Translations under genes and position numbers: made by a program
Assembly: GCA_965263355.1 (NCBI GenBank)
Contig: CBDHHL010000032.1
Location: 3,871,140 to 3,935,139, forward strand
DNA length: 64,000 bases
Direction of reading: 5' to 3'
Source of the DNA: Leptolyngbyaceae cyanobacterium
GTDB taxonomy: Bacteria > Cyanobacteriota > Cyanobacteriia > Phormidesmidales > Phormidesmidaceae
Part shown: positions 19,294-45,534 of the stretch, in pieces
How the letters are laid out: every line of letters begins with the position of its first letter
Position numbering within the stretch: position 1 is the first letter of the stretch
The notes under the pieces: model-generated
What the model was told of the DNA's origin: nothing
Seen by the model: only the letters and a program-made list of their open reading frames with translations
The model's database searches: none

Positions 19294-20391
19294 TCAGCTG
19301 CTAGCTTGACTGCGACGAAAAATTTCGATAGATACTAACTTATTAGTATCAGAATCCCACAAAATAAATTTGGCGCAATCGAGCATTTTGCTCATCTGAA
19401 TAGTTTTTGAGTCCAAGAGAAGGTGCTTATTTTTCTGATAGCATAACTTTAGATTATAGTTAGGAATTCTTTCAGAAAGATGATGAATATGATGATAGCT
19501 AATGTCAGCAGTAAACCACTTTAAGATAACGGGTAAATCCAAGTAACTGCTGCCTTCCACCGCTCCTGCCAAATAGTCCCAACCTTCCGTTTTGTGGGCA
19601 TAAGCTCCATCAAAATTATGTTGTACGAAAAAAACAGTAATAAAAATCGAAGCTGAAAGAGTTAGTACAGTAGAGTATATCCCTAAGAAAAAGTATGCTC
19701 CTAGCCAATGGCAAAGGAAAATCCATCCCCCAATTACAAAAATATTATTGAGCAGGATATCCCAAAATTCATCAGCTGTAGACCAATGCTTAGGTTTATG
19801 AGCCGAAAGTATTGCCGATAGGTTAGTTCTAGGATTAGCCTTTAAATAGCCAATGCTATGACGAATGAAATCATAAATACCCAGGATTAAAATAATTCTT
19901 GGTTTAAATGCTAGATAGAAAAAACCACCAGGAAAAGTCATCAATGGATGTCTCATCAATTCATATAAATTTTGCTCTGATAGAGCGAGTTGGGCATACT
20001 CTTCAGTCGATAAGAAGTCCCCAATACCTCGATATCGCTCCCAGTCACCATTGGTTTTGTGATGATAAGCATGGTCCCGAGACCACCAATATTGAGGCAT
20101 AGCATTGACTAGGCCAAACAAAAATCCAACTATTCGGTTGATTCTTTTTGACCTGAAAAGTGAGTAGTGGCCACAGTCATGCATTAAGGAGAAGCAGCGT
20201 AGTGAAAAGAGCACCAGGCAAATGATGACCAGAGGTAATAGGTAAATAGAAAACTGAACTGATTTCACTGCTAAAAACCACAGAAAAATATAAGGAACTA
20301 GTGTGTTTAAGACCTGATACGTGGCTCGCCAATTATTGCTCTGCATGTAAGGACTCAGAACAAAATCAGACTTTTCAATTGTTTGTTTCAT
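19294..20391 (-). CDS. Membrane fatty acid desaturase
   Basis: His boxes HDCGH, HAYHH, HHIHH; IPNYNL. Confidence 0.9.
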   Translation of the reverse strand: MKQTIEKSDFVLSPYMQSNNWRATYQVLNTLVPYIFLWFLAVKSVQFSIYLLPLVIICLVLFSLRCFSLMHDCGHYSLFRSKRINRIVGFLFGLVNAMPQYWWSRDHAYHHKTNGDWERYRGIGDFLSTEEYAQLALSEQNLYELMRHPLMTFPGGFFYLAFKPRIILILGIYDFIRHSIGYLKANPRTNLSAILSAHKPKHWSTADEFWDILLNNIFVIGGWIFLCHWLGAYFFLGIYSTVLTLSASIFITVFFVQHNFDGAYAHKTEGWDYLAGAVEGSSYLDLPVILKWFTADISYHHIHHLSERIPNYNLKLCYQKNKHLLLDSKTIQMSKMLDCAKFILWDSDTNKLVSIEIFRRSQASS

Positions 20392-20543
20392 TTAATGACA
20401 TATTCTCTCTTAAAAGTAGCTATTTACAGATAAATATTTTCTTAAGTAATTTTTTCGAATTGATAAAAAATCCACAGACTAGGCTAACATCCAGTGTTCC
20501 TTGAAAAGGTTAAGGTATTCTCCGATGTAGCAGTGCAAGGTTT

Positions 20544-20783
20544 TTACCAAGGCAACTCTGCAAAGCTATGGACTACTATATTGCACTTATTATTAGGTCT
20601 TGGTCGAAGAGAATGCTCCATGACAATTTCTTTTATTCCGTCTATAAAACCAGATTGTCCTGTAGCCCGAATTGCAGCAGTAGTCACTGTGATGTCGCGC
20701 CATATTGTTATGCGTCGCTCCGATGGATCAGTGTAGCTGTAAACAACGTGATAGCTTTTGGGAGGACTCATAATTGAGTTCAT
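20544..20783 (-). CDS. Hypothetical protein
   Basis: 79-aa ATG ORF, no recognised motif. Confidence 0.35.
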   Translation of the reverse strand: MNSIMSPPKSYHVVYSYTDPSERRITIWRDITVTTAAIRATGQSGFIDGIKEIVMEHSLRPRPNNKCNIVVHSFAELPW

Positions 20784-20905
20784 ATTGTTGGCCCAACAGT
20801 ATCGAAAGGCTCTCTCTTGGTTGACGAAGCTTTATTTTACATTGGGTGCGATCTCAGAATGACTTATCTTTGTACGTCTTGATGTTCTTCGCAAGGATTC
20901 TTGCG

Positions 20906-21250
20906 TTACGATTCTGTAAAAACAACTCCTTTTTGTTCTAGCTGATATTCAGCGGAAACCCAGGTATTACTCAGGACTACATTTAAGGTCTTGGCTTGGT
21001 GATCAATCCAGTAAAAGCCGTTGGGAAGCCGCCCATTATATTTTTTCAGCCACTCATCCCAGAACGACTTCTCTACAAAGCCTATTCGAGATTCCATCAT
21101 TTGTATGTTTTGGCTGTTTGTCAAGCTTTGCCTTTGACCCTCCAATACCTGCCACAGATGGATGCTACTGGGGACCGTCACATGCTGGAGGTCTTCAACT
21201 TTTACAAATTCAGGCATGTTTATGATTAGAAAACAACATTGATGCTCCAA
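20906..21250 (-). CDS. Hypothetical protein
   Basis: About 100-114 aa ORF with globular-looking composition. Confidence 0.45.
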   Translation of the reverse strand: MEHQCCFLIINMPEFVKVEDLQHVTVPSSIHLWQVLEGQRQSLTNSQNIQMMESRIGFVEKSFWDEWLKKYNGRLPNGFYWIDHQAKTLNVVLSNTWVSAEYQLEQKGVVFTES

Positions 21251-21442
21251 GGGGATTCTCTAGTGCGACATTACTCACTGGAGGTATTCAATCTCAGCGA
21301 AACATAGCTTAACGGAATATTAACGTCTTTAAAGATAAAATGGATTTATTCAGAAGAAGTTAATGTATAAACTGCATTTATTGATTTAATACGCTTATTA
21401 AACTCGGTGCTTTGCACTACCTCTATTTAGGAAAACTCAATA

Positions 21443-21625
21443 ATGATTCACACAGAAGTTTATAACCTTGAAGTCAAATCAGGTACTCGAAATCACAAGG
21501 GTTATTTTGTTCAAGATATGACTTATAGATTGGTTGGCATTGATCAAGCTGGTTGGGCTTTGATTTGTCAAGATAACACTACTTGCCACTACGTAGATCC
21601 TGATTGTTTGCAAGAAATCATCTAG
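21443..21625 (+). CDS. Small hypothetical protein
   Basis: 60-aa ORF with TAGGA upstream. Confidence 0.5.
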   Translation: MIHTEVYNLEVKSGTRNHKGYFVQDMTYRLVGIDQAGWALICQDNTTCHYVDPDCLQEII

Positions 21626-21859
21626 CGTGATTGGTAGCTGATCAGTTCCAGGAATGGTTGACTTGTCCGTTCCTACCCAGATTTATCCATTGAGAATACT
21701 TTTTTAAAGGCAGCAGATTAAATTAGCTGCTAGTCCAAAAATAGTATCTAAAGCTTCGTTCATTTAATAAACTCTTTAACAATTTATCCAATGAAATCTT
21801 TGATTCAGCATGCGCGTTTTGATTCAGAGACGCCAATGTCTAAGATGGAAGAAACTCTG

Positions 21860-21967
21860 ATGCACAGACATATTTGTCTTTGTTGCTCAAGTGTTTTACT
21901 TCGGCATGTTTCTTCAGGTAAGCTTTCTTGGCGTTGTAGTCACTGTTGCCAAAATATGCCAGTTTAG
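21860..21967 (+). CDS. Cys-rich zinc-ribbon-like microprotein A (35 aa; in-frame ATGs back to 21791)
   Basis: MHRHICLCCSSVLLRHVSSGKLSWRCSHCCQNMPV; paralogue at 27169. Confidence 0.7.
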   Translation: MHRHICLCCSSVLLRHVSSGKLSWRCSHCCQNMPV

Positions 21968-22101
21968 GAAACTCTTAAAGTAGACAGCTCTCAATTAACG
22001 TCGAGTTGACAATCCAATGTCGATTTGAGCCTCATAGCAGAACTTGGTGAAAGATCTGAGTTCTGTATTATCAATCTAATTATAATTCCTGGATAAATAG
22101 C

Positions 22102-22362: not shown

Positions 22363-22442
22363 ATCCTGAGGGGCGACAATATCTTCTTGACAGAAATATG
22401 GAATATGAGACATGGAACTGCAGATATTGCCGGGCTAAACCC

Positions 22443-23537
22443 TTAACTAACAAGCGGTAGCATAGAGTCCGGACAACCAACAAAGTGTTTTTTTATAAAT
22501 GGAGATGTCATTGCTGCTAACAATCCTCCATAGGTAAGACCAAAGGTAACTTCACTACCAATGGGGAAATGAGTGCTCCTATCCTCTAAAATAATGTGGT
22601 CACTGCTAGCCCCCAATATCTCTAAATCGTCAAGGGGACTTAGGCCAGATACTAAGACATCCTGTATACCCAACGCAATAATCACACGTTGATGAATACC
22701 TCGATCTAAGTATTGGGGACTATTCCCAAAAGCATCCTGGCAGCTTTCACCGTTAGGGAGAGATGGTTTTTTCTTTGATTCGATCACTTCAGCAACCAGT
22801 TTAAAGGCACTGGTATCTAATTCAGGAATAGTCTTTCGATGCGCCGTTTCGTACCCTAAAAGAATCGATTCACCCAGGCGTAGATTGTTAATTCGTCCAA
22901 CATCTTGAGTAGACTCATACCAGTCGTAGTTGGCCGAATTGCCCCCTGAGATAAGAGCTAAATGAATCTGAAGTTCTTTTTCGATGGAATGCGCTATTTC
23001 AGACAATTGACGCATCTTTGCATTATTTGGCTTGATACCACCATAGCAAGCCAAATTGCATCCAATTCCAATAATTTGGATATTTGATAAGGCATCGGCA
23101 TCTTTAATGAATTTTGAAAGATCCTTGGGAAGAACCCCTTCACGCAAATCACCTAGTTCGACCATAACAATGATTTGATGAATTTTGTTATGCTGAATAG
23201 CGTAATGGGAGAGTTCTTTTATCGTTTGAAGTTCTGTGTTGAGGCTAATATCCGCATTTTGAATCACAGATTCTGCCTGACTTAACGGAGTCCGCAACAG
23301 TACAAATTGAGTTAATATGCCAGCCTTTCTCATCTTTTGAAGATTTTCAATGCGAGAATCGGCAATAAATTTTACTCCACCTAAAATCATGGCCTCAGCA
23401 ACCAAGGGATTGCCAAGCACAGCTTTAGAAACTCCCATCAGGTCAATCTTTTTACGCCCATAAAAGTTGCATAAAAATTGAGTGTTGTACCGTATCTTAG
23501 ATAAGCTGATTTCTATTCTTGGCATCAATAATGCCAT
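22443..23537 (-). CDS. Alanine/ornithine racemase-family PLP enzyme
   Basis: GVSK PLP lysine, ADSRIENL, ELGDLREG, SGGNS, NNLRLGE, GASSDH. Confidence 0.87.
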   Translation of the reverse strand: MALLMPRIEISLSKIRYNTQFLCNFYGRKKIDLMGVSKAVLGNPLVAEAMILGGVKFIADSRIENLQKMRKAGILTQFVLLRTPLSQAESVIQNADISLNTELQTIKELSHYAIQHNKIHQIIVMVELGDLREGVLPKDLSKFIKDADALSNIQIIGIGCNLACYGGIKPNNAKMRQLSEIAHSIEKELQIHLALISGGNSANYDWYESTQDVGRINNLRLGESILLGYETAHRKTIPELDTSAFKLVAEVIESKKKPSLPNGESCQDAFGNSPQYLDRGIHQRVIIALGIQDVLVSGLSPLDDLEILGASSDHIILEDRSTHFPIGSEVTFGLTYGGLLAAMTSPFIKKHFVGCPDSMLPLVS

Positions 23538-23649: not shown

Positions 23650-24771
23650 TTATCTCGTGGCTAGCTGCGGTATGTCGCCTAGAGACGTTGGCTTAGAACG
23701 CAAATTAAGCTGTGGGAAACAATCGTCTAACACATTCAATAGCTTCTGACACCCATAATTCAATACATCTGTTGTTGGCAATCGAAAAAAGCGCTCACAA
23801 TCCTTTATGGTTTCTACGGATTCTGCTGCTGTTAAATTTTTGTTGTTGAGTGTAATAGCCATCACCTTAGACTGAGAAATCGCCTCAATCAATCGAATCT
23901 CACTTTCAAGCGTCGGCATGGGTAAATCTGGAAAATCGCATCGAAACTTTCTAGCAGACGGATGCTGGAGAATGACTCCATCAGGCATACTTCCCTTCAA
24001 AATCCCCACGGAACTCATAAAAGCAGGATGGCTAACCGCACCCTGTCCTTCGACTAAAATAATGTCTGGATTTTCATTTTCAAAAGCTTGAACAACAGCA
24101 TGTTCTATCTCACCAACGACAAACTGCGAAACCAGGGCGTCGATGGATGCACCGTACTTTGCCCCCTGCATTAGGCCAGTTTGACCGGTTGCAATCATGA
24201 TTGACCTGACACCCAGACTATTCAAGGCTTTGTTAAGTTCCACGGCAGTTGTCATTTTGCCACAGGCGCAATCGGTACCTAATATGGCAATAACCGGAAT
24301 GTTAATCTTAGCAATCTGTCCTGTGAAAATATGCAGATCCTTGAGTTGTGGAGGTTTTCGGATATCTCTGATTTGCACATTACATTGTTCAGCCATATGA
24401 CTGAACTCTGCATCGTCAGAAAAAAATTCGTGCAGTCCATTGATAATATCCATACCCTCTTCCATGGCCTCCAAAATTAGGAACCTTTCTTCGGAAGATA
24501 TGCGGGCATCTAAAGGTGCCTTGCCATAGATATAGCAGTTTGGGATCTCTGGTAGGGCATCTAAAGCTGCTCTCAAATTAGCAAAAATGGGAATATTATT
24601 TTTTTTATCGCCTAAAACTTCCCCCGTATCCTGACCGGTTAACGAGCTATCAAGCACTCCAACAATCTGATATGTATCAGATTGTCGAATTAACCCTGAT
24701 GCTGTTTTGCCGTCAATTAATCCAAATTGTTCTTCACAATAGATTAGCGCTGTTTTCTGCATGGTCATCAT
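23650..24771 (-). CDS. DUF1611 P-loop protein (DgcN-like)
   Basis: GKTA.GL, NGLH.F, GTDCACGKMTT, ATGQTG, VEGQG...HPA. Confidence 0.87.
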   Translation of the reverse strand: MMTMQKTALIYCEEQFGLIDGKTASGLIRQSDTYQIVGVLDSSLTGQDTGEVLGDKKNNIPIFANLRAALDALPEIPNCYIYGKAPLDARISSEERFLILEAMEEGMDIINGLHEFFSDDAEFSHMAEQCNVQIRDIRKPPQLKDLHIFTGQIAKINIPVIAILGTDCACGKMTTAVELNKALNSLGVRSIMIATGQTGLMQGAKYGASIDALVSQFVVGEIEHAVVQAFENENPDIILVEGQGAVSHPAFMSSVGILKGSMPDGVILQHPSARKFRCDFPDLPMPTLESEIRLIEAISQSKVMAITLNNKNLTAAESVETIKDCERFFRLPTTDVLNYGCQKLLNVLDDCFPQLNLRSKPTSLGDIPQLATR

Positions 24772-24857: not shown

Positions 24858-26486
<1,629 letters not shown>

Positions 26487-26640: not shown

Positions 26641-27168
26641 CCCAGTGTTGGAACAACTGAACTTCAGCACCTCTTAGGCTGATTTAACCTAGGAAATAGA
26701 TTTTATGTTCATAGTCTCATTATTCCTTAAGACTGTGAACCAGCTATCAGCAGGCACATTTTCTGAAAGATGCCTTAAGATGCCCTAAACTTGTCAAATT
26801 AGTTGAATTGAAGAGGTATGATTGAAGCCTCTTGTAGCATGCCAACTCAATAAAAATAATATTGTTTTTGAACCCTGTTAAAAAATAGCTAAGCTCCAAA
26901 GCTATTTAGGTGAAAGGAAGGTTAATTGACAATAATTTTGGATGCTGTGTTGCTCATACGCCTATTATACACATAGACTTATCGAAAAAGACATACAGCG
27001 GCTAATCTTATCAAGTGCTACCTCTTTTGTTGAGATCATCTACAATTAAAACAATATCAACACGATCTTAAACAAAATGAGAAGTTCACCAATAACCGAT
27101 CCTATTAATCTGGTTAACCATGAGTAAGTCATGGCGTGCCGTCATCAGTAACCATGGAGAAATCCAGG

Positions 27169-27285
27169 ATGAATCGAAGTATATGTCCTTGTTGCTCGAA
27201 TGTTTTACTTCGTCACATTAGATCAGAAGGCATCTCTTGGCGTTGTAGCCATTGTCGCCAATCTATGCCTAGCATCCAAAATTAA
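27169..27285 (+). CDS. Cys-rich zinc-ribbon-like microprotein B (38 aa)
   Basis: MNRSICPCCSNVLLRHIRSEGISWRCSHCRQSMPSIQN; GGAG upstream. Confidence 0.75.
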   Translation: MNRSICPCCSNVLLRHIRSEGISWRCSHCRQSMPSIQN

Positions 27286-27509: not shown

Positions 27510-28715
27510 CTATGTCGAAAGCTTTGTTTCTTCCAAGGTGGGAATTTCTTCTAAGAATCGTAGCATAGGCTTCATGGTCAGTCCTTGTACAAATACAGAA
27601 AAGGCAACAACTCCAAAGGTAACCGTGATAATTTCAAATCGACGTGGCATATCAAGTGGTAACCCCAAAGCTAAGGCAAGGGCTAGAGCACCGCGTAATC
27701 CGCCCCAAAATAAAGCATGTTGATGAGTAATTTTAACTCGCAATTCAGATAGAGTGAAGATTGCACATAGCGGATAAATTGCAAAAGCTCGTCCAACAAT
27801 AACAACGCTAATAGCAACTAAGATCGGCAATAGAAAGTAACCAAAATTTTCGTGGGATTCTTGAATTCCAATTAAGATAAAAATGAGCGAATTTGCTACG
27901 AACGCTGCATACTCCCAAAAAGCTTCGACTGATTTTCTTCCTTCATCTGAAATAGAGCCAAGGGAACCTAAATTACCAATCATTAGCCCCGCTGTGACCG
28001 TTGCCAGTACTCCTGACCAGTGAAAGTGTTCTGCTAAGAGAAACGAGCCATAGGCTACCACAGTTGTAAAGGTAATTTCGACTAATGGATCCTCTGTCTG
28101 CCCTGATAATAATAACAGAGTGCTTGCAACCACGATGCCGCATAAGATGCCGCCACCAATTGAAGCTATTAATGTGCTTACTGTACTAGAAAAACTAATA
28201 CTCTGACCCATTGCTAAGGTAACAGCTATTCCAAAACATACGGCAGCAGTACTGTCATTAAATAAACTTTCAGCTTCTACTAATAGCTTCAATCTTCCCT
28301 GAACCCCCGTCTCCTTAAAAGTAGCAATTACCGAAACCGGATCAGTTGCTGTAATGAGAATACCGAAGACCATAGCAACTTTCCATTCCCAGCCTGCTAA
28401 ATAGTGCATGCCTGCAGCAGTAATTCCAGATGATAGTAGTACTCCTATCGTTACCAAGGTGAGGACGACCCATAAATCTTTCTGTAATTCTTTCCAGCGG
28501 ATGTAAAGCGTGGCTTCAAATATTAAAGCAGGCAGAAAAATTAAAAAGACAAGTTCTCTGGATAACTCGAGGGGATTAGAAAAAGGTATAAACGAGATTC
28601 CAACTCCAGCAATAACTAAGCCGATTGTGTAGGGAATCTTGATCAACCTTGCCAGCATCGCCACGATTGCAGCCACAAAAAGAAAGAACTCTATTTGCTC
28701 AATGTTTAGAGTCAT
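27510..28715 (-). CDS. CPA1 Na+/H+ antiporter (NhaP-like)
   Basis: FLPALIFEA, ATDPVSV, ESLFND, WGGLRGAL. Confidence 0.93.
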   Translation of the reverse strand: MTLNIEQIEFFLFVAAIVAMLARLIKIPYTIGLVIAGVGISFIPFSNPLELSRELVFLIFLPALIFEATLYIRWKELQKDLWVVLTLVTIGVLLSSGITAAGMHYLAGWEWKVAMVFGILITATDPVSVIATFKETGVQGRLKLLVEAESLFNDSTAAVCFGIAVTLAMGQSISFSSTVSTLIASIGGGILCGIVVASTLLLLSGQTEDPLVEITFTTVVAYGSFLLAEHFHWSGVLATVTAGLMIGNLGSLGSISDEGRKSVEAFWEYAAFVANSLIFILIGIQESHENFGYFLLPILVAISVVIVGRAFAIYPLCAIFTLSELRVKITHQHALFWGGLRGALALALALGLPLDMPRRFEIITVTFGVVAFSVFVQGLTMKPMLRFLEEIPTLEETKLST

Positions 28716-28856: not shown

Positions 28857-29693
28857 TTACTGCCGGGTTAATAGGTGCTTTTCCAACTGCTGCTCATAAC
28901 TAAGATCCTGAGTATTCAGTAATTTATCCCAGAACGTGAAATATAGCCCGTAATGTACAGTATATTTGCGATGATGAATAGCATGATGGGCAGGACCAAT
29001 AAACCACCTTCCCAGCCAATGGTGGGGAAACGAAGCGGGCAAACGGTCAATCCCAAGATGATTTACCACCGCCCATATCGTCATCGTTGTAAGGACTGCG
29101 ATTAGAGTGATAAAATGAAGTGGAATGACAAAGACAATCCCAACCAAGAACAGAGACTGAACAATCGCCTCTAGAGGGTCAAAGGCAAAGGAAGTCCATG
29201 GGGTAGGATGGTGCGATCGGTGGTGACCTCGGTGTAACCAGGGAAAGAGTAACGGGTGGTGAAATAACCGATGGGTGAAATAAAAATAAGTATCCTGCAG
29301 CACCAACACTACACCGTAGCTGACGCCTAAATACCAGAGCCCATATGCTTGAGGGTGACTATATAATCGAGTGATGCCCCAACCGTATCCAGACATAATA
29401 AACGCTGCTGCCAGTGCAAACACCCCTGCCGAAAGAATCGAGAGCGTAATATCTTGTTGAATTAATCGCCAGGACGGAGACCAATGCTGCAGGTTGTGAT
29501 TAGTAAAGGGCTGACTCAAGGGCGAATAGAAGAACAAATAGGTTCCCCCTGCTACCAAAAAATATCGCACTAGAATAATCCCAAAAAAAGCGATGCTGTA
29601 AAATCCAAATGAGTGGTCTATCAAGTTAACCTCCTTGCCATTCCCGACCTTCAAAGTCCTTTTAAGGTAAGGGCAATGTGCCTCAATAACCAT
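28857..29693 (-). CDS. Sterol desaturase/fatty acid hydroxylase family protein
   Basis: HRLFH, HRGHH, NH, HHAIHH, YGLYFTFWD. Confidence 0.88.
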   Translation of the reverse strand: MVIEAHCPYLKRTLKVGNGKEVNLIDHSFGFYSIAFFGIILVRYFLVAGGTYLFFYSPLSQPFTNHNLQHWSPSWRLIQQDITLSILSAGVFALAAAFIMSGYGWGITRLYSHPQAYGLWYLGVSYGVVLVLQDTYFYFTHRLFHHPLLFPWLHRGHHRSHHPTPWTSFAFDPLEAIVQSLFLVGIVFVIPLHFITLIAVLTTMTIWAVVNHLGIDRLPASFPHHWLGRWFIGPAHHAIHHRKYTVHYGLYFTFWDKLLNTQDLSYEQQLEKHLLTRQ

Positions 29694-30844: not shown

Positions 30845-31144
30845 TTAGCTGGCCATAAAAGCAATCCATGTGGTCAAGGCAACAAACAAGCTAGCGGCTA
30901 CCCCCAGGAAAACATAACGCCGCTGTTGTTTTTGAGAGGGATATTTTGCGTCATACATCTCAGGCTCAATTGCATAGTTATTGACAATTCCCTCATCGTC
31001 TACTCTGTAGCCAGTCCCTAATGGCTCGTTAAGCGATTCGCTAGATTTCTTGCGAATATTCACTTGGACCTCGGCAGGGATGAGCTCACTACCATCACTG
31101 GGAGGTGTTGCTGCTATTTTTCTCTCTTTATCGGTGTAATTCAT
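30845..31144 (-). CDS. psb34: Psb34/Ssl1498-family PSII assembly protein
   Basis: DEGIVNNYAIEPEMY.A.YPS..QQRRY plus C-terminal TM helix. Confidence 0.8.
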   Translation of the reverse strand: MNYTDKERKIAATPPSDGSELIPAEVQVNIRKKSSESLNEPLGTGYRVDDEGIVNNYAIEPEMYDAKYPSQKQQRRYVFLGVAASLFVALTTWIAFMAS

Positions 31145-33203: not shown

Positions 33204-33515
33204 TTAATCAAATACTCCCTCTACGGTTTGCCGAAAAGCAATCAGGGCATGGGTTGATTGCAACGGCTTCAGATCTTCGAACAATTGATCAGACAGATCT
33301 GATGTGACAATGGTTTTGATTTCAACGTTGGTGTTGTATCCTGCTATATCGCCCATCCGTCTACCATGACTGCCTGCCCCCTGGGCTGGAATGATCGTAT
33401 AACCTGATATCCCAAGCTTAGCTAGTAGCTTTATCAAGCGATCCTGCAAGACAGCTTCACCAATCATCGTAACAAGTGTACCTTTCGCTAAAGAATATGA
33501 CATATAAACCTCCAA
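33204..33515 (-). CDS. PII-like (SbtB-related) protein
   Basis: GYTIIPAQGAGSHG, NVEIKTIV. Confidence 0.75.
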   Translation of the reverse strand: MEVYMSYSLAKGTLVTMIGEAVLQDRLIKLLAKLGISGYTIIPAQGAGSHGRRMGDIAGYNTNVEIKTIVTSDLSDQLFEDLKPLQSTHALIAFRQTVEGVFD

Positions 33516-35427: not shown

Positions 35428-35607
35428 GGGTATTGCTATAAGTAGGGGAATAAGTATCAGTATGGATAAACATTGTTTGAATTCTGGAGTGATTTGGTGA
35501 ACTACGACATCAAAATTCATGCATCTAAAGACAAGTTCTAATTAATTAGAACACTCGTAGCAGCTTGGGTTTGCTAAGATGAGAGAGAGTTATACGGCTT
35601 CTAAGTG

Positions 35608-35772
35608 TCAAAAGTGAAGAACTCCTTGGCTAGACAATACTTCAATTGTGAGAGCACATACAAAACCGATCATGGCCAGTCGGCCATTCCAAAGCTCTGA
35701 CTGAGGCGTAAATCCCCACAGCCAACCATTTCGAAATCGAGAAAAAGAGATTTTCTTTTTAGAATTTGTCAT
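35608..35772 (-). CDS. hli: High-light-inducible protein (Hlip/SCP)
   Basis: [19 protein letters not shown] chlorophyll-binding motif. Confidence 0.9.
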
Positions 35773-35840: not shown

Positions 35841-36038
35841 TTAGAGGGAAGCGAGATCTACATTTAAATTCCATTCATGCTTCATAAGTTCTTGAAACAC
35901 TGTTTTCTGAACCAGCATGAGCTGATACAGTTTAACTAAATACTCTTGAGCTTGTTCAAGGTTCATCTGCTGTACTTGGTCTTCAAAATTTCTGAGATTG
36001 AATGCCTGCTCTAGTGTGAGTTCGGTTGCGTTATCCAT
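35841..36038 (-). CDS. nblA: NblA/Ycf18-family protein, second copy
   Basis: [39 protein letters not shown]. Confidence 0.9.
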
Positions 36039-36296
36039 AGCTATCTCCCATAACCCAAGATTGAATAAAAATCGTAAGATGAGTAGTCAGTAAATCGACT
36101 CGAAATTTCGTTCTGAAGTGGATCAATTCATTACTGACGAATTACACTTACAATCAGTATGGTAAAGTGATGTTTCATTTCTAGGGTTATTTGATTGAAA
36201 ACCTTACCTACTTATGCCAACAGCAGGTGAGGTTTTAATGTGGCTAATCAACATTAGTTTTAAGAGACAGAAAAACCAAGCAATATTAGAAACGAT

Positions 36297-36428
36297 TTAC
36301 TTTGAACTGTCTAATAGCTCTGACATAGGGCTATCATAGTTTTTATGATTTTTCTTTTGTTTCTTTTTTCCATCAACAGCTGCTTTCGGTTTTTTGACTT
36401 CTCTATTGCCTTTGCGTCGTTTTGACAT
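36297..36428 (-). CDS. Lys-rich basic microprotein A (43 aa)
   Basis: MSKRRKGNREVKKPKAAVDGKKKQKKNHKNYDSPMSELLDSSK; GGAGG RBS; paralogue at 43825. Confidence 0.7.
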   Translation of the reverse strand: MSKRRKGNREVKKPKAAVDGKKKQKKNHKNYDSPMSELLDSSK

Positions 36429-36468: not shown

Positions 36469-36756
36469 CTAGATACCAAAATAATTGGCAGATTCTAGAT
36501 AGTCATTATGCATATAACCATCTGACATTTTAGCCCCTCTTAGGTTAGCTCCACTTAGGTCCGCTCCCCTCAAAGTGGTCCAATTAAGATTGGTATTACT
36601 CAAGTCTGCATGATTCAAGTTAGATCCACTTAAATTTGAGCCCGTAAAATCAACTCCACTCAAATTTGCTCGACTCAGATCCAGATTTTTCAACTCTTCT
36701 AATCTAAAACTTCTCTTTCCAGTTGCATATTGTTTTAGAACTTGATTGGCATCCAT
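36469..36756 (-). CDS. Pentapeptide-repeat protein
   Basis: LKQYATGKRSF then A(D/N)Lxx repeats. Confidence 0.88.
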   Translation of the reverse strand: MDANQVLKQYATGKRSFRLEELKNLDLSRANLSGVDFTGSNLSGSNLNHADLSNTNLNWTTLRGADLSGANLRGAKMSDGYMHNDYLESANYFGI

Positions 36757-36878: not shown

Positions 36879-37343
36879 CTAAGCCTGTCGCAGCACTTCT
36901 GTTTCAATTTGAGCTTGAAAGCGGTTTAAACTCTCTACTAGATTTTCTTCTAGCCAGCGTTCTAAACCGATGTTTTCCAGCCGTGCACCGACAATTCCTC
37001 CTGGTAAATCGAAGGCAAGTGTCAGGCGCAAACGGCACCCTTGATCCGTGGCAAAAAATTCAGCAGAGCCATTGTTTGCTAGTCCAGACACTGACTCCCA
37101 GGTGATTAACTGCAGAGGAATACGTTGAGTAATGCGAGAAGTCCATTTGGTCAATAGTGGAAATCCCGGTCCAAACGTCCAGTGATAGAGTCCTTGCTCG
37201 CCTGGTAAACGTCTGACACATTTTACCATTGGCATCCACCGGGGTACATTCTCTAAATTTTCCCAGAGGTTATAAACCTGTGTTACGGAACAGGCTACTT
37301 CTACCTCCACACTACGTTCAAGGGTTAATTTTTTCACAGTCAT
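36879..37343 (-). CDS. SRPBCC/polyketide cyclase-like protein
   Basis: VYNLWENLENVPRWM, ITWESVSGL.N.G. Confidence 0.85.
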   Translation of the reverse strand: MTVKKLTLERSVEVEVACSVTQVYNLWENLENVPRWMPMVKCVRRLPGEQGLYHWTFGPGFPLLTKWTSRITQRIPLQLITWESVSGLANNGSAEFFATDQGCRLRLTLAFDLPGGIVGARLENIGLERWLEENLVESLNRFQAQIETEVLRQA

Positions 37344-37549: not shown

Positions 37550-38119
37550 CTAATAATGGATGGTTCCATCGGGCATCTTAGTTCTACTTAATCCGGCTCT
37601 GTTTATATTTGCGCCTAAAATAGTTGCTCCAGTCAAATCTGCTTCACCTAAATAGGCCCCATCCAGGTTTGCATCACTGAGATCTGTCTCCTGTAGATTT
37701 GCTCCGGTTAAATCTGCACAGCGTAAATCACTATCGCTTAGATCTGCTTTATGCAAGTCAGCTTTGCGCAAATCTGCTCCTCCTAAATTCGCTCCACTGA
37801 GATTTGCGCCACTTAAATCTGCATGGGTTAAATCCGCTCCACTAAGGTCTGCGCCGCTCAAATCTGCATGGGTTAAGCAAGCTTGAATCATTGCTACCCC
37901 CGCTAAATTGGCCTGGTTTAGCTTCGCTTGTTTGAGATGAGCCTCTGTCAGATCGGCTTCTCGTAAATCAGCACTAATCAACTCAGCACCAATTAACTTG
38001 ACACCAATTAGCTTGGCATTTGTCAGACAGACTTGAACCAGACTGACATGACTAAAATCCCGTTGTCCTGACGCATAGCGTTTCAAAATCTCTTGAGCAT
38101 CCATACCTTGATCCCTCAA
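37550..38119 (-). CDS. Pentapeptide-repeat protein
   Basis: RYASGQRDF, many ADLSG repeats, MPDG end. Confidence 0.92.
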   Translation of the reverse strand: MRDQGMDAQEILKRYASGQRDFSHVSLVQVCLTNAKLIGVKLIGAELISADLREADLTEAHLKQAKLNQANLAGVAMIQACLTHADLSGADLSGADLTHADLSGANLSGANLGGADLRKADLHKADLSDSDLRCADLTGANLQETDLSDANLDGAYLGEADLTGATILGANINRAGLSRTKMPDGTIHY

Positions 38120-38403: not shown

Positions 38404-39978
38404 TTAATCCCACGACATTACCCTAAAGTCTGCATTGCGTGCGAGTGGATCGTAGCCCAGCTGTTGGGTAATTCGTTCCTTGGCCAAAGCACGATACTCC
38501 CAAAAATGTTCACCTGCAGCACATAACCCTAGGTATACATTTAGAGCCTGTGGTTTGTTCAATAAAATAATCCAGAGTTGATGCCAAAACTGTCCTCGAA
38601 TATCGGTTCGGTGAATCCCTTGACTCCAAACAAGCTGGACAAATAAGCGTAGGCCTTTGTGCAATGGGAACTGCATTGTTTGTCTTCGACGTTGTCGGCA
38701 ACGAATTTTGAGACATTGTTGTAAACAACGTCTGAGATATCTTTCAGGCTCATACATCTGCCAAAATCCATCGACGTATTCCCTAGCAATTTCTGTAATT
38801 GGGCGTGTGGGGATAAAATTCATTAAGGTATTCTGATCACCGCTTAGATGACTAGAGGTTTCTAGCAGACGCTGTTCTTTCTTGAGTCGTTCCCACAAGG
38901 CGGTATTGGGCAATGCTTGCAAAAGGCCTAACATGGGTTGGGGAATACTGGTTTGTTCTACAAAGGCTTGAATACGATCGCCTGCACCTACTCGTTCTCC
39001 ATCAAAACCAAGGATAAATCCCGCATAGATCAGCAGTCCTGCCTCATTGATTTTTTGACAGGCTTCTACCAAAGGATTACGGGTATTTTGAAGTTTGCGG
39101 GTGACCTGCAAGCTATCTTTGTCAGGGGTTTCAATCCCGAGAAAAACAGCGTAAAATCTTGCTTCACCCATAAGCTGGAGTAATTCATCATCCTCTGCTA
39201 GATTGACCGAGGCTTCTGTCATAAAAGTAAATGGATAGTGGTGCTGCTGCATCCATGGGATCAGTTCTCTCAAGAAGCACTTTACATTGCGCTGATTACC
39301 AATAAAGTTGTCATCTACGATAAAGAGTGATCCACGCCAACCTAAGTCGTAGATGGTTTGTAGCTCTTCCAGGGCTTGGGCTGGTGTTTTGGTATGGGGT
39401 TTTCGACCATATAGGGAAATAATGTCGCAAAAATCACAGTTAAAGGGACACCCGCGAGAAAACTGTATAGCCATCATCAAGTAGGCGTCTCGCTGTAGCA
39501 GGTCAAAGCGCGGTATAGGGCTCTGAGTGACATCGGGTTTTTCAGGGGAACGAAAAATGCCATGGGTTTCTCCCTGACCCAGAGCTTTGAGAAATTGGGG
39601 AACTGTCATTTCCCCTTCATCCAGAATTAAAAACTGGGCTCCTGCATCTAACGCATCTTGAGGTACAGAAGTGGGATAAGGGCCTCCCACGGCGACCTTT
39701 TTACCTAGCTGGATGGCTTTTCGAATCAGAGCTTGAAAGTCTGTTTTTTGCACTAGCATGGCGGAAAGAATGATTATGTCGCACCATTCCCAGTCTGTGT
39801 CTGTTTCATGGGCAACATTGCGATCGCAAAAACGAATTTCCCAGTCTGACGGTAGGAGCGTAGCAACTGTAATAATCCCCAACGGAGGAATCACCGCCTT
39901 GAGTCCGGCAATTTCCATAAAGCGATCGTAGGACCAGAAAGACTGAGAGAAGTGAGGATAGAGTAGCAAGGCTTTCAC
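38404..39978 (-). CDS. B12-binding radical SAM protein (DUF4070-type)
   Basis: PPLGI, VGGPY, RGCPFNCDFC, VDDNFIG, GFILGFD. Confidence 0.9.
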   Translation of the reverse strand: MKALLLYPHFSQSFWSYDRFMEIAGLKAVIPPLGIITVATLLPSDWEIRFCDRNVAHETDTDWEWCDIIILSAMLVQKTDFQALIRKAIQLGKKVAVGGPYPTSVPQDALDAGAQFLILDEGEMTVPQFLKALGQGETHGIFRSPEKPDVTQSPIPRFDLLQRDAYLMMAIQFSRGCPFNCDFCDIISLYGRKPHTKTPAQALEELQTIYDLGWRGSLFIVDDNFIGNQRNVKCFLRELIPWMQQHHYPFTFMTEASVNLAEDDELLQLMGEARFYAVFLGIETPDKDSLQVTRKLQNTRNPLVEACQKINEAGLLIYAGFILGFDGERVGAGDRIQAFVEQTSIPQPMLGLLQALPNTALWERLKKEQRLLETSSHLSGDQNTLMNFIPTRPITEIAREYVDGFWQMYEPERYLRRCLQQCLKIRCRQRRRQTMQFPLHKGLRLFVQLVWSQGIHRTDIRGQFWHQLWIILLNKPQALNVYLGLCAAGEHFWEYRALAKERITQQLGYDPLARNADFRVMSWD

Positions 39979-40257: not shown

Positions 40258-40686
40258 CTACCCTTGGAGAAGGATGGATGCAGGCGTTAGGATCGTATCA
40301 ATGATATGAATAACACCATTGTCAGCAGCTACGTCAAAGATTTTCACAATAGAATCATTCACCTTAATGTTACTAACATCTATGGGGACATTAATCTTAA
40401 TCTTTGATCCTTCAACGGTTTTCACAGTTTTCATCTTCGTAATAGCAGCGGCCATGACCTTACCTGTTAAGACATGGTAGGCTAAGATTTTCTTCAGCTT
40501 AGGAATGTCCTTGAGGAGTTCATCCATCACACCTTTGGATAATTTCTCAAAGGCATCGTCCGTTGGTGCAAAGAGTGTAAACGGACCCGTTCCCTTAAGA
40601 ATATTGACCAGTCTAGCTGTTTCAATAGCCGTCACTAGGGTAGTCAAAGAACCTGCCTGAATGGCGGCATCAATAATATCAGTCAT
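40258..40686 (-). CDS. Fasciclin (FAS1) domain protein 2
   Basis: [29 protein letters not shown]; paralogue of 32517. Confidence 0.9.
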   Translation of the reverse strand: MTDIIDAAIQAGSLTTLVTAIETARLVNILKGTGPFTLFAPTDDAFEKLSKGVMDELLKDIPKLKKILAYHVLTGKVMAAAITKMKTVKTVEGSKIKINVPIDVSNIKVNDSIVKIFDVAADNGVIHIIDTILTPASILLQG

Positions 40687-40717: not shown

Positions 40718-43168
40718 TTATGAGACAACATTAGTTGTTAACTCCTCTCGTAGAATTTGAACTTCATTGTTGTCATCGATATCCACAACCACCGTATCTC
40801 CCGATTGAACTTTGCTAGAAAGAATGGCCTCTGCAAAACTATCTTCTAACAGACGGGTGATTGCTCTCCGTAACGGGCGTGCACCTTGTTCAGGGTTGTA
40901 GCCTGATTCAATTAAGTGCTCGATAAATTGATCAGTTACTACCAGGCTAATGTCTTGTTCAAATAGGCGTTTCCGGAATTCACCTAGCAGGATATCAGCA
41001 ATTTCTCTAATCTCATCTTTGATGAGTTGTTGAAAAACAATGACGTCATCTAGACGATTGAGAAACTCTGGACGGAAGTACTCCTTGAGTTCTTCGTTAA
41101 CTAACGTCACCAGGTTTCTATAATTCGCACTTACTTGATTGTCAGAGACATTAAAGCCTAACCCTCCTGCACCCTTCTGAATCAATTTTGAACCTGCATT
41201 CGAGGTCATTACCAATAGCGTATTCTTAAAGTTGACAGTACGCCCTTTGGCATCGGTTAAACGACCTTCGTCTAAAATTTGCAGCAGCAAGTTAACGACA
41301 TCAGGGTGTGCTTTCTCGATTTCGTCAAATAGTACCACTGTGTAAGGCTTACGACGGACAGCTTCGGTTAACTGTCCCCCTTCTCCATATCCGACATAGC
41401 CTGGTGGGGAACCAATTAGTTTGGCAATTGCGTGACGCTCCATATATTCAGACATATCCAAACGAATCATGGCTGCCTCAGACCCAAAGAAATTTGCAGC
41501 CAGCGCCTTAACCAGCTCTGTTTTACCTACCCCTGTAGGCCCAGCAAAGATAAAACTAGCGATTGGACGATTGGGATTTTGTAACCCAACACGAGCACGA
41601 CGAATTGCCTTTGCAATTGCCTTAACCGCTTCTTCTTGACCAATCAAACGCTGATGCAAAATTTCTTCCATATGGAGCAACTGATCAGATTCAGATTCTG
41701 TCAATTTGCTGACTGGAATGCCAGTCCAGGATGACACAACATGGGCAATATCGGCTTCGTCTACAACAGGATAGGAACCAAGAACAGAAACGTTTTGAGT
41801 AACTGACTGAATCTTTTGCATAAGCTCGTTTTCATGAATCTGCAATGCACTTGCCTGGGCAAACTCTTGCTGCTGAATCGCTTTATCTTTCTTTTTTAGA
41901 ATCTGTTGCAATGCTTTGCCTAAATCCTTGGAAATGGAGGATTGTTGCTGAGAGGAGAGAATATGTGTACGAGAACCGGCTTCATCTATTAAATCAATCG
42001 CTTTGTCAGGCAAAAACCGATCTGAAATGTAGCGATGTGAGAATTTAGCGGCGGCGGTTAAAGCCAGATCTGAGATGGTCAACTGGTGGTGTCGTTCATA
42101 GCAACTCCGTAATCCTTGTAAAATTAAAATCGTTTCGTCAACACTTGGCTCGTCTATCATCACTGTTTGAAACCGACGTACTAAAGCAGCGTCCCGCTCA
42201 AAATGTTTTCGATATTCATCAAGTGTGGTCGCGCCAATACACTGAAGTTCACCCCGTGCCAAAGCTGGTTTGAGGATATTCGCAGCGTCCAAAGTTCCTT
42301 CTGGCGAGCCTGCACCAATTAATGTGTGGACCTCATCAATCACCAGAATCACGTTTCCAGCTGAACGAAGTTCAGCCATAACGGTCTTTAGACGCTCCTC
42401 AAATTCGCCTCGATACTTTGTCCCTGCAAGTAAGGAACCCAAATTTAACGTCACAACCTGCTTGTTGTGAAAACTTTCAGGCAAATCATGGTCGACGATA
42501 CGTTGAGCTAACCCTTCTGCCAAAGCTGTTTTACCCACACCAGACTCACCGATAAGAATAGGGTTGTTTTTCGTTCGGCGACTTAAAATTTGAATCACTC
42601 GTTCAATTTCCTGCTGGCGACCAATTACTGGGTCCAGTCTGCCGAAGGTGGCCAATTTCGTTAGATTAACACCACAGCTATCCAGGGTTGGAGTTTTTTC
42701 AATCTTAAGCTGATTGTCAGCAGGAGTAGGTTTTGCGTTTGCGATCGCTTGCACTAAGTCAGCACGCAGTTTGTTGCTATCAACACCCAGCTTAGCTAGC
42801 ACCCTCATGGCTGAACCGTCTTCATCCCATATCATTGCCAGTAACAAATGCTCGGCATCTACAGCATTTTTACCGAGCTGTTGAGCTTCTTTCAGCGATT
42901 GTGCTAGTACCTGCCGACAGCGAGGGGTGAATTGAATCTCATTGCTAATCCCGGCAGGACCTGTTCCAATAATATCTTCAACGATAGTTCGTGCCGTAGT
43001 GAGTGTAATTCCCAGATTTTTAAAGATATTCGCTGTTATATTAGGTTCTGCTGCTATTAGCCCTAAAAGAAGGTGATCTGAGCCCATAAAAGGATGATTA
43101 AGGCGATGAGCTTCATCCTGAGCACACATTACAACTTTAATCGCCATTTCTACAAAAAAATCAAACAT
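40718..43168 (-). CDS. clpC: ClpC-type Hsp100 ATPase paralogue
   Basis: Clp N repeats, [11 protein letters not shown]-like coil, [20 protein letters not shown] ClpP-docking loop. Confidence 0.93.
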
Positions 43169-43824: not shown

Positions 43825-43923
43825 ATGACTAAGCGAACGAAAGGAAATAGAGAACCCAAAAAGGCAAAAAAAATATCCAAAAAGCTTAAGAAACAGAAAA
43901 AAGAGCGAAAAATATATGAGTAG
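43825..43923 (+). CDS. Lys-rich basic microprotein B (32 aa)
   Basis: MTKRTKGNREPKKAKKISKKLKKQKKERKIYE; AGGAG RBS. Confidence 0.7.
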   Translation: MTKRTKGNREPKKAKKISKKLKKQKKERKIYE

Positions 43924-44194: not shown

Positions 44195-44386
44195 ATGATG
44201 AATAATATGACTATACGCTACAATCCTTCTATTAGCGAAGAGCCTCGATATCAGGTTGCACAGCCTATTGTTCGAGCGGAAACACAAGAATCTATTTTAG
44301 ATTGGTTAGACCGTATTGGTCGGTTGTTACCACGTGTAGACGACTCTCAAACCGTTGCTATATCTAGAAATGATGAAGGCAAATAA
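44195..44386 (+). CDS. DUF3134-like small protein
   Basis: NPSISEEPR..ESILDWL..GRL. Confidence 0.7.
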   Translation: MMNNMTIRYNPSISEEPRYQVAQPIVRAETQESILDWLDRIGRLLPRVDDSQTVAISRNDEGK

Positions 44387-44463
44387 GTAGTTTAAAACAA
44401 ACTTGGGCATAGAGTCTTGTTGTAATAAATAAAGTGCTAAAATAAGAAAAGAGAATAGGTATA

Positions 44464-44572
44464 GGTTGCAGCATTTGTTTTTAGCATTAACGAGTTCCCA
44501 CGTTTTTTCTTGTTGACATATCTCTTTCCGAACGTTCACTCTTTACTTTTTTGATTTTGGAGTCAGTCTGTT
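44464..44572 (+). promoter_or_regulatory. Conserved rbp leader, copy 1
   Basis: Aligns with 45163-45264; TCCGAA can pair with the TTTGGAG RBS. Confidence 0.6.
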
Positions 44573-44827
44573 ATGTCAATTTATTTAGGAAACCTATCTT
44601 ATGAGGTTACAGAAGAGGAATTAACGGTTGTATGTGCAAAATATGGAATCGTTAAAAGTGTTTATCTTCCGACTGATCGTGAGACAGGCCGTCTTCGAGG
44701 CTTTGGTTTTGTATCAATGGGGGCCGAGACGGAAGAAGCTGCTGTTATTGAAGCGCTGGATGGGGCAGAGTGGATGGGACGTGAGTTAAAAGTCAATAAA
44801 GCTAAGCCTCGGGCGTTGAATAATTAA
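44573..44827 (+). CDS. rbp: RRM RNA-binding protein (RbpA family), no Gly-rich tail
   Basis: IYLGNL RNP2, RGFGFV RNP1, WMGRELKVNKAKP. Confidence 0.92.
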   Translation: MSIYLGNLSYEVTEEELTVVCAKYGIVKSVYLPTDRETGRLRGFGFVSMGAETEEAAVIEALDGAEWMGRELKVNKAKPRALNN

Positions 44828-44828
44828 G

Positions 44829-45103
44829 GGATGGTTTCAAAATGCACACGATGGACTGCCGTCATTGCTAATTCGAGCAGACTCGCAAGCATGGTCACAC
44901 ACGCAGGAAGTAAAACTGTCGGTGTCTCGTCTGTGATTGTCAGTTTGTTGAAACGCTCGCTCTTTGACGGTGGGTATTCAAATGACATCAGACAGCTGTG
45001 CCTGCACATGTATGTTAATGGGATGGGGTTTCGAGGCATTGAACGAGTGGCGGCCGGGGTGCATCACACCACAGTTATCTATTGGGTTAAATCAGATTGT
45101 TAG
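44829..45103 (+). pseudogene. IS1-family InsA-like transposase remnant
   Basis: Broken CxxC start; CLHMYVNGMGFRGIERV..VHHTTVIYWVK. Confidence 0.8.
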
Positions 45104-45162
45104 CAAGACGTAGATGATGCAAATAGAGGGAGAGAATAATTGCTTACGTCATTATCTGACTC

Positions 45163-45264
45163 GGTTACAGCATTTGCTTTTAGCATTAACGACTTTTCAC
45201 GTTTTTCTTGTTGCGCTCTCCGGACGTTCACTCTTCACTTTTTTGATTTTGGAGCCAATCTATT
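45163..45264 (+). promoter_or_regulatory. Conserved rbp leader, copy 2
   Basis: TCTCCGGA..TTTTGGAG; aligns with copy 1. Confidence 0.6.
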
Positions 45265-45534
45265 ATGTCGATTTACATAGGTAACCTGCCTTATGAGGTT
45301 ACTCAAGAAGAACTGACGGCTGTCTTTACACTATATGGAATGGTTAGAAGTGTTCATCTTCCACCTGATCGCGAAACAGGCCGTCTTCGAGGCTTTGGCT
45401 TTGTATCAATGGGTGCCGAGGCTGAAGAATCTGCTGCTATTGAAGCGCTGGATGGGGCAAAGTGGATGGAGCGTGAGTTGAAAGTTAATAAAGCTAAGCC
45501 TTGTCAAGAACTTGGCGGACGACTTTTCTCATAA
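45265..45534 (+). CDS. rbp: RRM RNA-binding protein (RbpA family), second copy
   Basis: IYIGNL, RGFGFV, ELKVNKAKP. Confidence 0.92.
   Translation: MSIYIGNLPYEVTQEELTAVFTLYGMVRSVHLPPDRETGRLRGFGFVSMGAEAEESAAIEALDGAKWMERELKVNKAKPCQELGGRLFS

Follow-up and report, generated by a model that had tools for sequence, protein, structure and literature searches.

A likely laterally spread stress island in a Leptolyngbyaceae cyanobacterium and the probable regulon of its deleted XssQ-related activator

Contig CBDHHL010000032.1 of a Leptolyngbyaceae cyanobacterium contains, within the 64,000-nucleotide stretch analyzed here (hereafter, the window), a cluster of 21 minus-strand genes at 22443-43168 with one short plus-strand open reading frame (ORF) in between. 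The question raised by this locus is what holds together genes for photoprotection, protein quality control and stress tolerance, and how they are switched on. The initial annotation of the window described about 20 co-oriented minus-strand genes at 22.4-43.2 kb, and family scans found every gene that it named. We consider it probable that the cluster is a composite stress island, likely spread laterally among filamentous cyanobacteria, the central half of which (28.9-36.2 kb) constitutes the regulon of a STAND activator related to XssQ that is deleted in this copy. XssQ, the OCP2 family of orange carotenoid proteins (OCP) and the protease FtsH4 are already known; the new element is the link between box, regulator and targets in the cluster. 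No account of the cluster, box or regulon was found in the open-access literature, with figures and most supplements outside the scope of the search.

Repeat box and candidate HTH-NACHT regulator

Relatives of the cluster were collected by a species-genome scan with the PII-like protein, in which 79 loci were kept out of 124 confirmed stretches, many of them short contigs. The closest loci (96-97%) belong to Leptothoe sp. PORK10 BA2, Leptolyngbya sp. PCC 7375, Leptothoe spongobia, and a cyanobacterial metagenome-assembled genome (G001-G004, with PCC 7375 as G002). Within 10 kb of the PII-like gene, the 79 loci contain genes of the families psb34 (24 loci), ftsH (23), fasciclin (18), OCP (14), hli (13), nblA (13) and prohibitin (12), with clpC in only 4 and groEL in 1. 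The families recur in distant strains and on plasmids (Kovacikia, Chroococcidiopsis, Aulosira and Nostoc), where the initial annotation had suggested looking for their gene order; the order is shuffled between hosts.

For motif discovery, words were counted in 317 de-duplicated upstream regions of the cluster families versus 390 other regions and combined into linked spaced words. The resulting matrix was trained without the window and loci L001-L004 and converged on 40 of 287 regions, these 40 from 10 gene families being its training set, with matches in 2 of the 390 background regions. In the held-out window it has three matches, all on the minus strand before cluster genes: box 1 (36152-36205, 40 bits) ahead of nblA-hli, box 2 (35455-35508, 38.5 bits) ahead of ftsH4-PII-like, and box 3 (32991-33044, 30 bits) ahead of fasciclin-nblA-prohibitin-psb34-ocp2. 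The next best position scores 11.8 bits, and in a left-out-family test the three boxes ranked 3, 3 and 2 among 127,894 positions. A matrix rebuilt from 90 sites gave no fourth box in the window, and no matrix match precedes the clpC, groEL, radical-SAM and RRM genes there. Judging from 40 sites outside the training set, the box consists of up to three 9-bp units with a 12-bp period, the last of which reads AAATCAAAC and is followed after 10 bp by the -10 hexamer CATACT. Sigma-70 and terminator scans performed at chance level (35 versus 38 and 13 versus 17, respectively), so operon limits were taken from gene spacing.

Boxes precede genes for NblA, FtsH4, fasciclin, PII-like, receiver, ApcA-like, CsbD and OCP2 proteins, and also for ferritin/Dps-like and hemerythrin proteins. 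Core-gene loci totalling 262 kb yield one match. The box is present at 16 of 18 island ftsH loci, many of which overlap the training set, versus none of 14 housekeeping ftsH4 loci. A same-strand box lies up to 4.4 kb upstream in 15 of 19 OCP2 copies, including 5 of the 7 in loci fetched after training; within 1.5 kb, the weak comparison of OCP1 with OCP2 loci gives 0 of 23 versus 2 of 7.

The candidate reader of the box is a 770-aa HTH-NACHT-NCH2 protein encoded in 15 of the first 82 loci and matching XssQ of the Synechocystis plasmid pSYSM at 35.5% over 749 aa, with 41 of 70 residues identical in the HTH domain. Its full-length structural model is poor (mean pLDDT, the predicted local distance difference test score, of 38; four-row alignment), and only residues 1-70 were used, which have a pLDDT of 70-85 and match Cro/C1-type HTH folds with a middling Z of about 7. 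The island regulators constitute a clade of 22 rows with support of 100 in FastTree, and their putative recognition helix is nearly invariant and unlike that of XssQ. The Anabaena 7120 genes alr3789 and all4929, listed elsewhere as XssQ homologues, are not named among the 120 regulator matches listed.

Regulator and box occur together. Loci chosen by the regulator gene in a phylum sample have a box within about 10 kb in 20 of 20 cases (reversed control, 1 match), whereas the box is found at none of the seven loci around other HTH-NACHT paralogues, including XssQ (141.6 kb). Among 150 family genomes, a strict pattern of the box matches in 22 of the 31 that encode the regulator versus 19 of the 119 that do not (reversed pattern, 6 genomes), and at least two matches are found in 13 of 31 versus 3 of 119; the PII-like marker is found in 25 of 31 versus 21 of 119. 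The phylum sample of 301 genomes contains the regulator in 31 and OCP2 (at least 75%) in 7, and in 5 of these 7 the regulator gene lies within 20 kb on the same contig. A near-identical 41-nt stretch with the strict pattern was also observed away from known island copies in five genomes (G001:C137:2901-2941; G037:C55; G061:C127; G066:C217; G089:C103).

Several observations weigh against this association. The co-occurrence counts ignore kinship; 19 of 119 regulator-negative genomes carry one pattern match and 9 of 31 regulator-positive ones carry none; two of the seven OCP2 genomes of the phylum sample show neither regulator nor box. Moreover, 5.1 bits is the best that the island matrix reaches on the real xss promoters, and the connection with XssQ is therefore drawn from protein homology and from the geometry of the repeats. 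In the window itself, genes for the regulator, a receiver and a kinase are absent, yet boxes and reading frames are intact. On balance, the island boxes are likely the binding sites of an activator paralogous to XssQ.

The missing regulator has left a trace. A 65-nt decayed 3' scar of the HTH-NACHT gene at 29623-29687 (minus strand) comprises its last ~20 codons, its stop codon and the ribosome-binding site that serves the gene downstream; in the alignment with the regulator's terminal codons, stops and a frameshift are apparent. The true start of the downstream hydroxylase gene is a TTG directly behind this scar, and the intact junction at locus L248 matches it, with the regulator stop abutting the hydroxylase TTG start. 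Contigs of the sequencing runs X1 and X3, which may derive from the very source of the window, bridge the gap, and neither run shows deep cover of the G003 regulator at 80% likeness, a threshold that an orthologue of another lineage with ~70% DNA identity would escape. Also missing are genes that the G002 and G003 copies have for crtW-like (ketolase-like), glycosyltransferase, glucosidase and YflT proteins. The window copy is thus a natural regulator-less mutant, in which the boxed operons either cannot be induced or depend on a paralogue encoded at another place in the genome, and because of this deletion the initial annotation could not have seen an XssQ-type regulator and its box.

The same deletions would be expected if the window copy were a decaying remnant, with activator, ketolase and receiver gone and the boxed operons silent and of no benefit. 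The scar, the missing genes and gene fragments at both edges are in line with such decay. However, all 21 frames are open, the catalytic motifs of FtsH, ClpC and GroEL are kept, and nonsynonymous divergence (dN) is far below synonymous divergence (dS) for the long cluster genes, a state with which recent loss is compatible. We regard decay without benefit as possible, though on the unlikely side.

Rather less credit is due to the proposal that a global regulator or sigma factor of the host, for instance OrrA/Rre1 or RpaB, reads the box, with the HTH-NACHT gene as a passenger or a target. The three intact boxes in a window without that gene would be accounted for, as would the frequent location of boxes directly beside the NACHT gene and the general-stress nature of the boxed CsbD, Dps-like and fasciclin genes. 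But a host-wide regulator fits poorly with a box that has one match in 262 kb of core loci and none at 14 housekeeping ftsH4 loci, that tracks one regulator clade with its nearly invariant putative recognition helix, and that mirrors in unit and period the XssQ site proven by electrophoretic mobility shift assay (EMSA). The sites of RpaB, SphR and RcaC repeat every 10-11 bp. We find a global regulator improbable and retain the XssQ-related activator as the predicted reader of the box.

The unboxed genes of the island lack the box and partly occur elsewhere without box or regulator, and the island therefore appears to combine two modules, one boxed and one unboxed. Parts of the unboxed set have no box or regulator match in G055, G071, G087 and a second partial copy of PCC 7375 (885-892 kb); a word count, the only search made for it, gave no motif specific to the unboxed module.

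We propose that the activator would oligomerise on the 9-bp repeats with their 12-bp period, just upstream of the -10 element, and turn on three units: nblA-hli, ftsH4-PII-like, and fasciclin-nblA-prohibitin-psb34-ocp2-hydroxylase, probably assisted by the lone receiver protein in the way XssR assists XssQ. NblA is the adaptor of ClpC in phycobilisome breakdown; together they would shrink the antenna, with OCP2 quenching it. Hlip and Psb34 would shield photosystem II (PSII) assembly, and FtsH4 would later clear these shielding proteins. The unboxed module (RRM, DUF3134, ClpC, fasciclin, radical SAM, GroEL, DUF1611 and racemase) accompanies the boxed one but also moves alone.

Likely lateral movement and site of the island

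Distribution of the cluster is patchy: the core is found at 81-92% DNA identity in 4 of 21 genus genomes and the PII-like marker in 46 of 150 family genomes. In this genus survey, which scored 14 candidates per genome with genome completeness unknown, three more genomes contain the prohibitin gene alone (82-83%), and the remaining 14 have only matches of 75% or less. At the DNA level, a 25-kb block of the window (20529-45501) is homologous to the G002 and G003 islands, mostly at 88-95%.

Divergence of the cluster is far lower than that of its surroundings. Between the window and G002, dS is 0.03-0.50 for 17 of 20 cluster genes, and 0.75 to saturated for all five flanking core genes. The three exceptions, for hydroxylase (1.77), ocp2 (0.78) and psb34 (1.03), are adjacent genes, suggesting that the block is a mosaic; the window hydroxylase is closer (84%) to the distant locus L248. 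Among G001-G004, the island ftsH has a dS of 0.14-0.36 (10 pairs), compared with 0.76 to saturated for the housekeeping ftsH4 (6 pairs), 0.83-1.05 for groEL1 and 1.02-1.23 for clpC. Composition of the island is atypical, with a GC content of 0.423 versus 0.462 in the left flank and 0.11 versus 0.40 HIP1 sites per kb; together with the patchy distribution and the low divergence between hosts, these are traits of tRNA islands.

Chromosomal sites differ as well. In G002, the cluster occupies 35-71 kb of the scaffold and has tRNA-Thr and an Arm-DNA-bind/phage-integrase gene as neighbours. The left flank of the window matches G002 at 5.31-5.33 Mb, in which tRNA-Gln has no cluster behind it, the G002 cluster copy being 5.3 Mb away. 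Given the patchy presence, the differing sites, the plasmid copies and a dS far below that of core genes, recent lateral movement of the block among Leptothoe-like genomes is likely, and to this extent the transferable island of the initial annotation is borne out.

Two findings weigh against mobility as a general rule: in G059, G068, G080 and G122 the dS of island ftsH (0.30-0.73) is close to that of the housekeeping gene (0.29-0.73), and many Nostocales keep the regulator clade at 82-95%, a pattern suggestive of vertical descent in those genomes. The cluster thus appears to be an old one that some lineages inherit vertically, with recent exchange in the Leptothoe-like lineage.

The initial annotation also placed the island downstream of a tRNA-Gln attachment site. 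The 3' end of tRNA-Gln(TTG) at 12545-12591 (plus strand) is indeed the first copy of an exact 47-bp repeat, but the second copy at 16147-16193 (plus strand) closes a 3.6-kb element that contains only HsdR_N, YhcG/DUF1016, and DUF4058 split into two frames, and the cluster starts more than 3 kb further on. No further repeat piece of 12 nt or more exists in the window, nor does it match the integrase beside the PCC 7375 copy, and the ORFs of 12.7-48.5 kb contain no integrase family; as a boundary of the cluster, the attachment site therefore does not hold. The DUF4058 part of the 12592-16146 element is 98% identical to the same-site gene in G002.

Insertion of the whole block at tRNA-Gln as a single element, catalysed by a site-specific integrase, would agree with the duplicated tRNA end upstream, with the accessory nature of everything from 12.6 to ~61.5 kb relative to G001 and G002, and with the G002 copy adjoining a tRNA and an integrase gene. 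We nevertheless think it very unlikely: besides the repeat pair that closes before the cluster, no cluster was seen behind tRNA-Gln in G001, G002 and four further genus members (two of them on short stretches), and the 80 kb examined of G002 contain no second tRNA-Thr end. An immobile, vertically inherited chromosomal neighbourhood lost in most lineages is the least probable alternative, since the old island ftsH clade, its deeper branches that partly track host groups, the equal ftsH dS and conserved regulator of the lineages named above, and a window without integrase or bracketing repeat are outweighed by dS values several-fold under those of matched housekeeping paralogues in G001-G004 and G151-G156 (contradicting it for Leptothoe-like genomes), by plasmid copies and differing sites in the window, G002 and G003, by the mosaic segment of dS 0.8-1.8 inside the block, and by lower GC and fewer HIP1 sites than in the left flank.

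The accessory zone appears to sit at an inversion breakpoint, because the right-flank core gene (62498-63682) and the recF/tRNA-Gln block are inverted relative to each other in G002, G037 and G071; they lie 60-80 kb apart in those genomes. In G003, G024 and G055, no recF region was detected.

Gene content of the island and its surroundings

The content was established from 40 window ORFs scanned against Pfam, covering those of 12.7-48.5 kb. Unless stated otherwise, the genes are on the minus strand. The first boxed unit comprises nblA (35841-36038) and hli (35608-35772; weak Pfam match, E 4e-4); the second, genes for the FtsH4-type protease (33547-35424; Walker A/B, SRH and HExxH intact), which is additional to the housekeeping copy, and the PII-like protein (33204-33500); and the third, genes for the first fasciclin-domain protein (32517-32918), NblA (32213-32392), a band-7/prohibitin protein (31259-32134), Psb34 (30845-31144; over the NCBIfam cut-off), OCP2 (29801-30760; Pfam, structure matches and hallmark residues), and a fatty-acid-hydroxylase/sterol-desaturase protein (28857-29624; Pfam). 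A Na+/H+ antiporter (27510-28715) follows, scoring best with CPA1 models.

The unboxed module includes an alanine-racemase N-domain protein (22443-23537; Orr-like below cut-off), a DUF1611 protein (23650-24771), an extra GroEL (24858-26444; 70% to GroEL1 of relatives) without a Gly-Met tail or an adjoining groES, and an extra ClpC (40718-43168; 64% to the housekeeping ClpC of relatives) with both Walker pairs and the ClpP-binding loop. Between these lie the second fasciclin-domain protein (40258-40686), a B12-binding radical-SAM/DUF4070 protein (38404-39978), two pentapeptide-repeat proteins (37550-38104 and 36469-36756), an SRPBCC/polyketide-cyclase-fold protein (36879-37343), and a small Lys-rich ORF of 43 aa (36297-36428). 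The alanine-racemase-domain, DUF1611, radical-SAM, pentapeptide, SRPBCC and Lys-rich genes are additions to the initial list. The extra, divergent nature of the paralogues claimed there was upheld by separate housekeeping ftsH, groEL and clpC genes, checked in relatives only; G002, for instance, holds 7 ftsH, 4 groEL and several clpC/clpB genes, so its island genes are extras. The G002 island clpC and second fasciclin gene are broken (L084, G002:C5:36465-38361), and its second partial copy (L096, G002:C5:885446-892578) has an intact clpC at 82%.

A second small Lys-rich ORF, of 32 aa, lies at 43825-43923 (plus strand). Pfam and NCBIfam have no family for either Lys-rich ORF. By pattern search, relatives occur in 36 of 109 loci, mostly immediately upstream of nblA, ftsH4 or the gene for the PII-like protein; these ORFs are probably an unannotated member of the cluster. 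Short Cys-rich zinc-ribbon-like ORFs at 21791-21967 and 27154-27285 have 72% DNA likeness to each other, and cluster loci repeatedly contain members of their family, in some cases preceded by a box. Of 82 cluster loci, 12 encode an additional allophycocyanin alpha subunit over the ApcA cut-off, its gene frequently preceded by a box or a receiver gene (for example, L081:6998-7486 and L080:25594-26079); this gene is absent from the window.

The desaturase and two RRM genes reported to flank the cluster are present. The fatty-acid desaturase (19294-20391) is probably island-borne, since G002 and G003 retain a 93-bp remnant of its gene at the edge of their islands. On the plus strand, a DUF3134 gene (44195-44386) is followed by the first RRM RNA-binding protein gene (44573-44827; Pfam/NCBIfam) and the second (45265-45534; Pfam), which copies the first at 86% on the DNA level; the duplication, within 44464-45501, includes the leader of the RRM gene (86% over 286 nt), with an IS1-like insertion sequence (IS) remnant in between (44831-45284, plus strand; IS1 family match at 44831-45103, E 7.5e-8, below cut-off). 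Of the IS remnants and pseudogenes described for both edges, an IS remnant thus exists at the right edge only, the left edge having HTH and YhcG fragments. An Rfam scan of the window gave only tRNA.

Beyond the island, 48998-59717 contains putative haemagglutinin-like, CHAT and CHASE2-type ORFs; the G003 island likewise adjoins a distant set of haemagglutinin/CHAT/CHASE2-type genes (33-41%). Two further ORFs (7123-8187 and 60137-61075) presumably resemble sulfotransferases; neither has a box.

Probable signal and comparison with known systems

The trigger of the boxed regulon is most likely low temperature or water/osmotic stress combined with excess excitation. Cold as the signal is suggested by the induction of xss genes, by the rise of ocp2 in Fremyella and by the desaturase, RRM and DEAD-box neighbours. 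The xss genes are up at low temperature, with the product 3.1-fold up at 20 C (PMC8205485), and Fremyella ocp2 is up ~260-fold at 8 C (PMC8739951). Opposing evidence comes from the same organism, in which ocp1 also rises ~160-fold at 8 C and ocp2 is unchanged at 15 C (PMC8739951), and from one OCP2 host from hot springs, a poor fit with cold alone (10.1101/2023.08.20.554024). Water stress or sessile growth is suggested by the boxed CsbD, Dps-like and hemerythrin genes and by an Anabaena rhodanese gene numbered beside an XssQ homologue, which is up in biofilm, desiccation and salt and provides a lead only (PMC12267927; PMC13156569). Among single signals, we put cold forward tentatively, see desiccation, salt or sessile growth as possible though unlikely, place high light lower still, and hold stationary phase to be doubtful. 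On Nostoc and Pseudanabaena plasmids (L215-L217), the regulator and boxes occur among pyruvate kinase, lactate dehydrogenase and phosphoglycerate mutase genes, with DUF1269, CsbD and hemerythrin genes as further neighbours, which may point to a part of the regulon that serves fermentation or dormancy.

In more general terms, a clade of XssQ-like STAND proteins may run a plasmid- and island-borne general-stress regulon across filamentous cyanobacteria as the usual switch for OCP2 and the second FtsH4, binding AAATCAAAC repeats with a 12-bp period, with XssQ paralogues split into regulons by two bases of the box; we judge the case for this proposal to be evenly balanced. If it is true, an NLR-like ATPase controls photoprotection at the level of transcription, and a host can acquire the entire cassette at once. 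Such a portable photoprotection cassette would comprise a quencher, an antenna-degradation adaptor, assembly shields and a protease. XssQ homologues are widespread, and the only function for them in the literature found is sulfated polysaccharide synthesis; OCP2 is the least understood OCP family, and here it receives a candidate regulator, a predicted site and predicted targets. Since XssQ and XssR already work in Synechococcus 7942, a strain without an xssQ of its own (PMC13125312), the activator and its promoter could also serve as an orthogonal pair for cyanobacterial engineering.

The window OCP is a member of OCP2. Its best solved structures are 8PZK and 8PYH (558 and 540 bits, versus at most 451 for others), and its residues S27, S114, E137, Q155 and M205 correspond to the OCP2 hallmarks Ala/Ser27, Ser114, Asp/Glu137, Gln155 and Met205 (10.1101/2023.08.20.554024); Y201 and W288 are present. 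Quenching by OCP2 is independent of FRP (10.1101/2023.08.20.554024). The available parts of the OCP2 papers cover biochemistry and expression (10.1101/2023.08.20.554024; PMC8739951), and say nothing of a common island setting or of a box read by an activator.

The window FtsH is 83% identical to a protein annotated as FtsH4 and groups with housekeeping copies at 72-79%, apart from paralogues at 47-52%; a quick tree without bootstrap sets the island ftsH apart as a separate clade (21 rows, SH-aLRT support of 99). FtsH4 of Synechocystis removes Hlips and is dispensable for PSII repair (PMC11287208). The island protein shares with it the FtsH4 type, the intact motifs and a gene location beside Hlip, the known substrate class of FtsH4 (PMC11287208), and differs from it in representing a second lineage additional to the housekeeping copy and in being the only one of the two with a boxed promoter. 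With regard to GroEL, Leptolyngbya sp. PCC 7375 has an extra monocistronic groEL outside the three described groups (PMC5381637). The island GroEL of that strain is 97% identical to that of the window and has no groES. The available part of PMC5381637 says nothing of an island setting for the unclassified gene; we infer that the two genes are the same.

The proteobacterial transmissible locus of stress tolerance (tLST, or locus of heat resistance, LHR), to which the initial annotation compared the island, is likewise a mobile bundle with a Clp ATPase, FtsH, a chaperone and a cation/H+ antiporter. Features of tLST are ClpG/ClpK, small heat-shock proteins, YfdX, thioredoxin, KefB, PsiE, HtpX and DegP. 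The likeness in bundled gene types stands as an analogy; membership in the tLST family was rejected, because the ClpC, with its ClpP-binding loop, scores 762 and 752 bits on the ClpG/ClpK models versus a cut-off of 1900, and none of the other listed tLST proteins is found by Pfam among the 40 window ORFs. The island also differs in its photosynthesis genes and in an order shuffled between hosts. An enterobacterial plasmid ftsH matches the island ftsH at ~65%, in the AAA part only.

The closest known system is XssS/XssR/XssQ, which governs the synechan cluster on pSYSM of Synechocystis sp. PCC 6803. XssQ activates the xss genes and binds single or tandem AAGTTnnAC sites in EMSA (PMC8205485), assisted by XssR, and both are functional in Synechococcus 7942 (PMC13125312). 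Two AAGTTnnAC sites lie 12 bp apart in the xssE promoter and 23 bp apart in the xssL promoter. Both systems have a STAND activator with N-terminal HTH and NACHT domains (in the island, in copies other than the window), tandem 9-bp sites with a 12-bp period near the promoter, plasmid copies, and often a nearby receiver without a DNA-binding domain; in other island copies this lone receiver gene is frequent and often stands behind a box. No XssS-like kinase recurs with the island, kinases being absent from the families recurring in 82 loci save scattered cases, and the window has neither kinase nor response regulator genes. The island regulators form a separate, fully supported clade, and their predicted unit AAATCAAAC has five of seven specified bases in common with AAGTTnnAC. 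Finally, the targets differ: whereas the xss genes encode sulfotransferases and glycosyltransferases for a sulfated polysaccharide, the predicted targets of the island activator are photoprotection, protease and general-stress genes.

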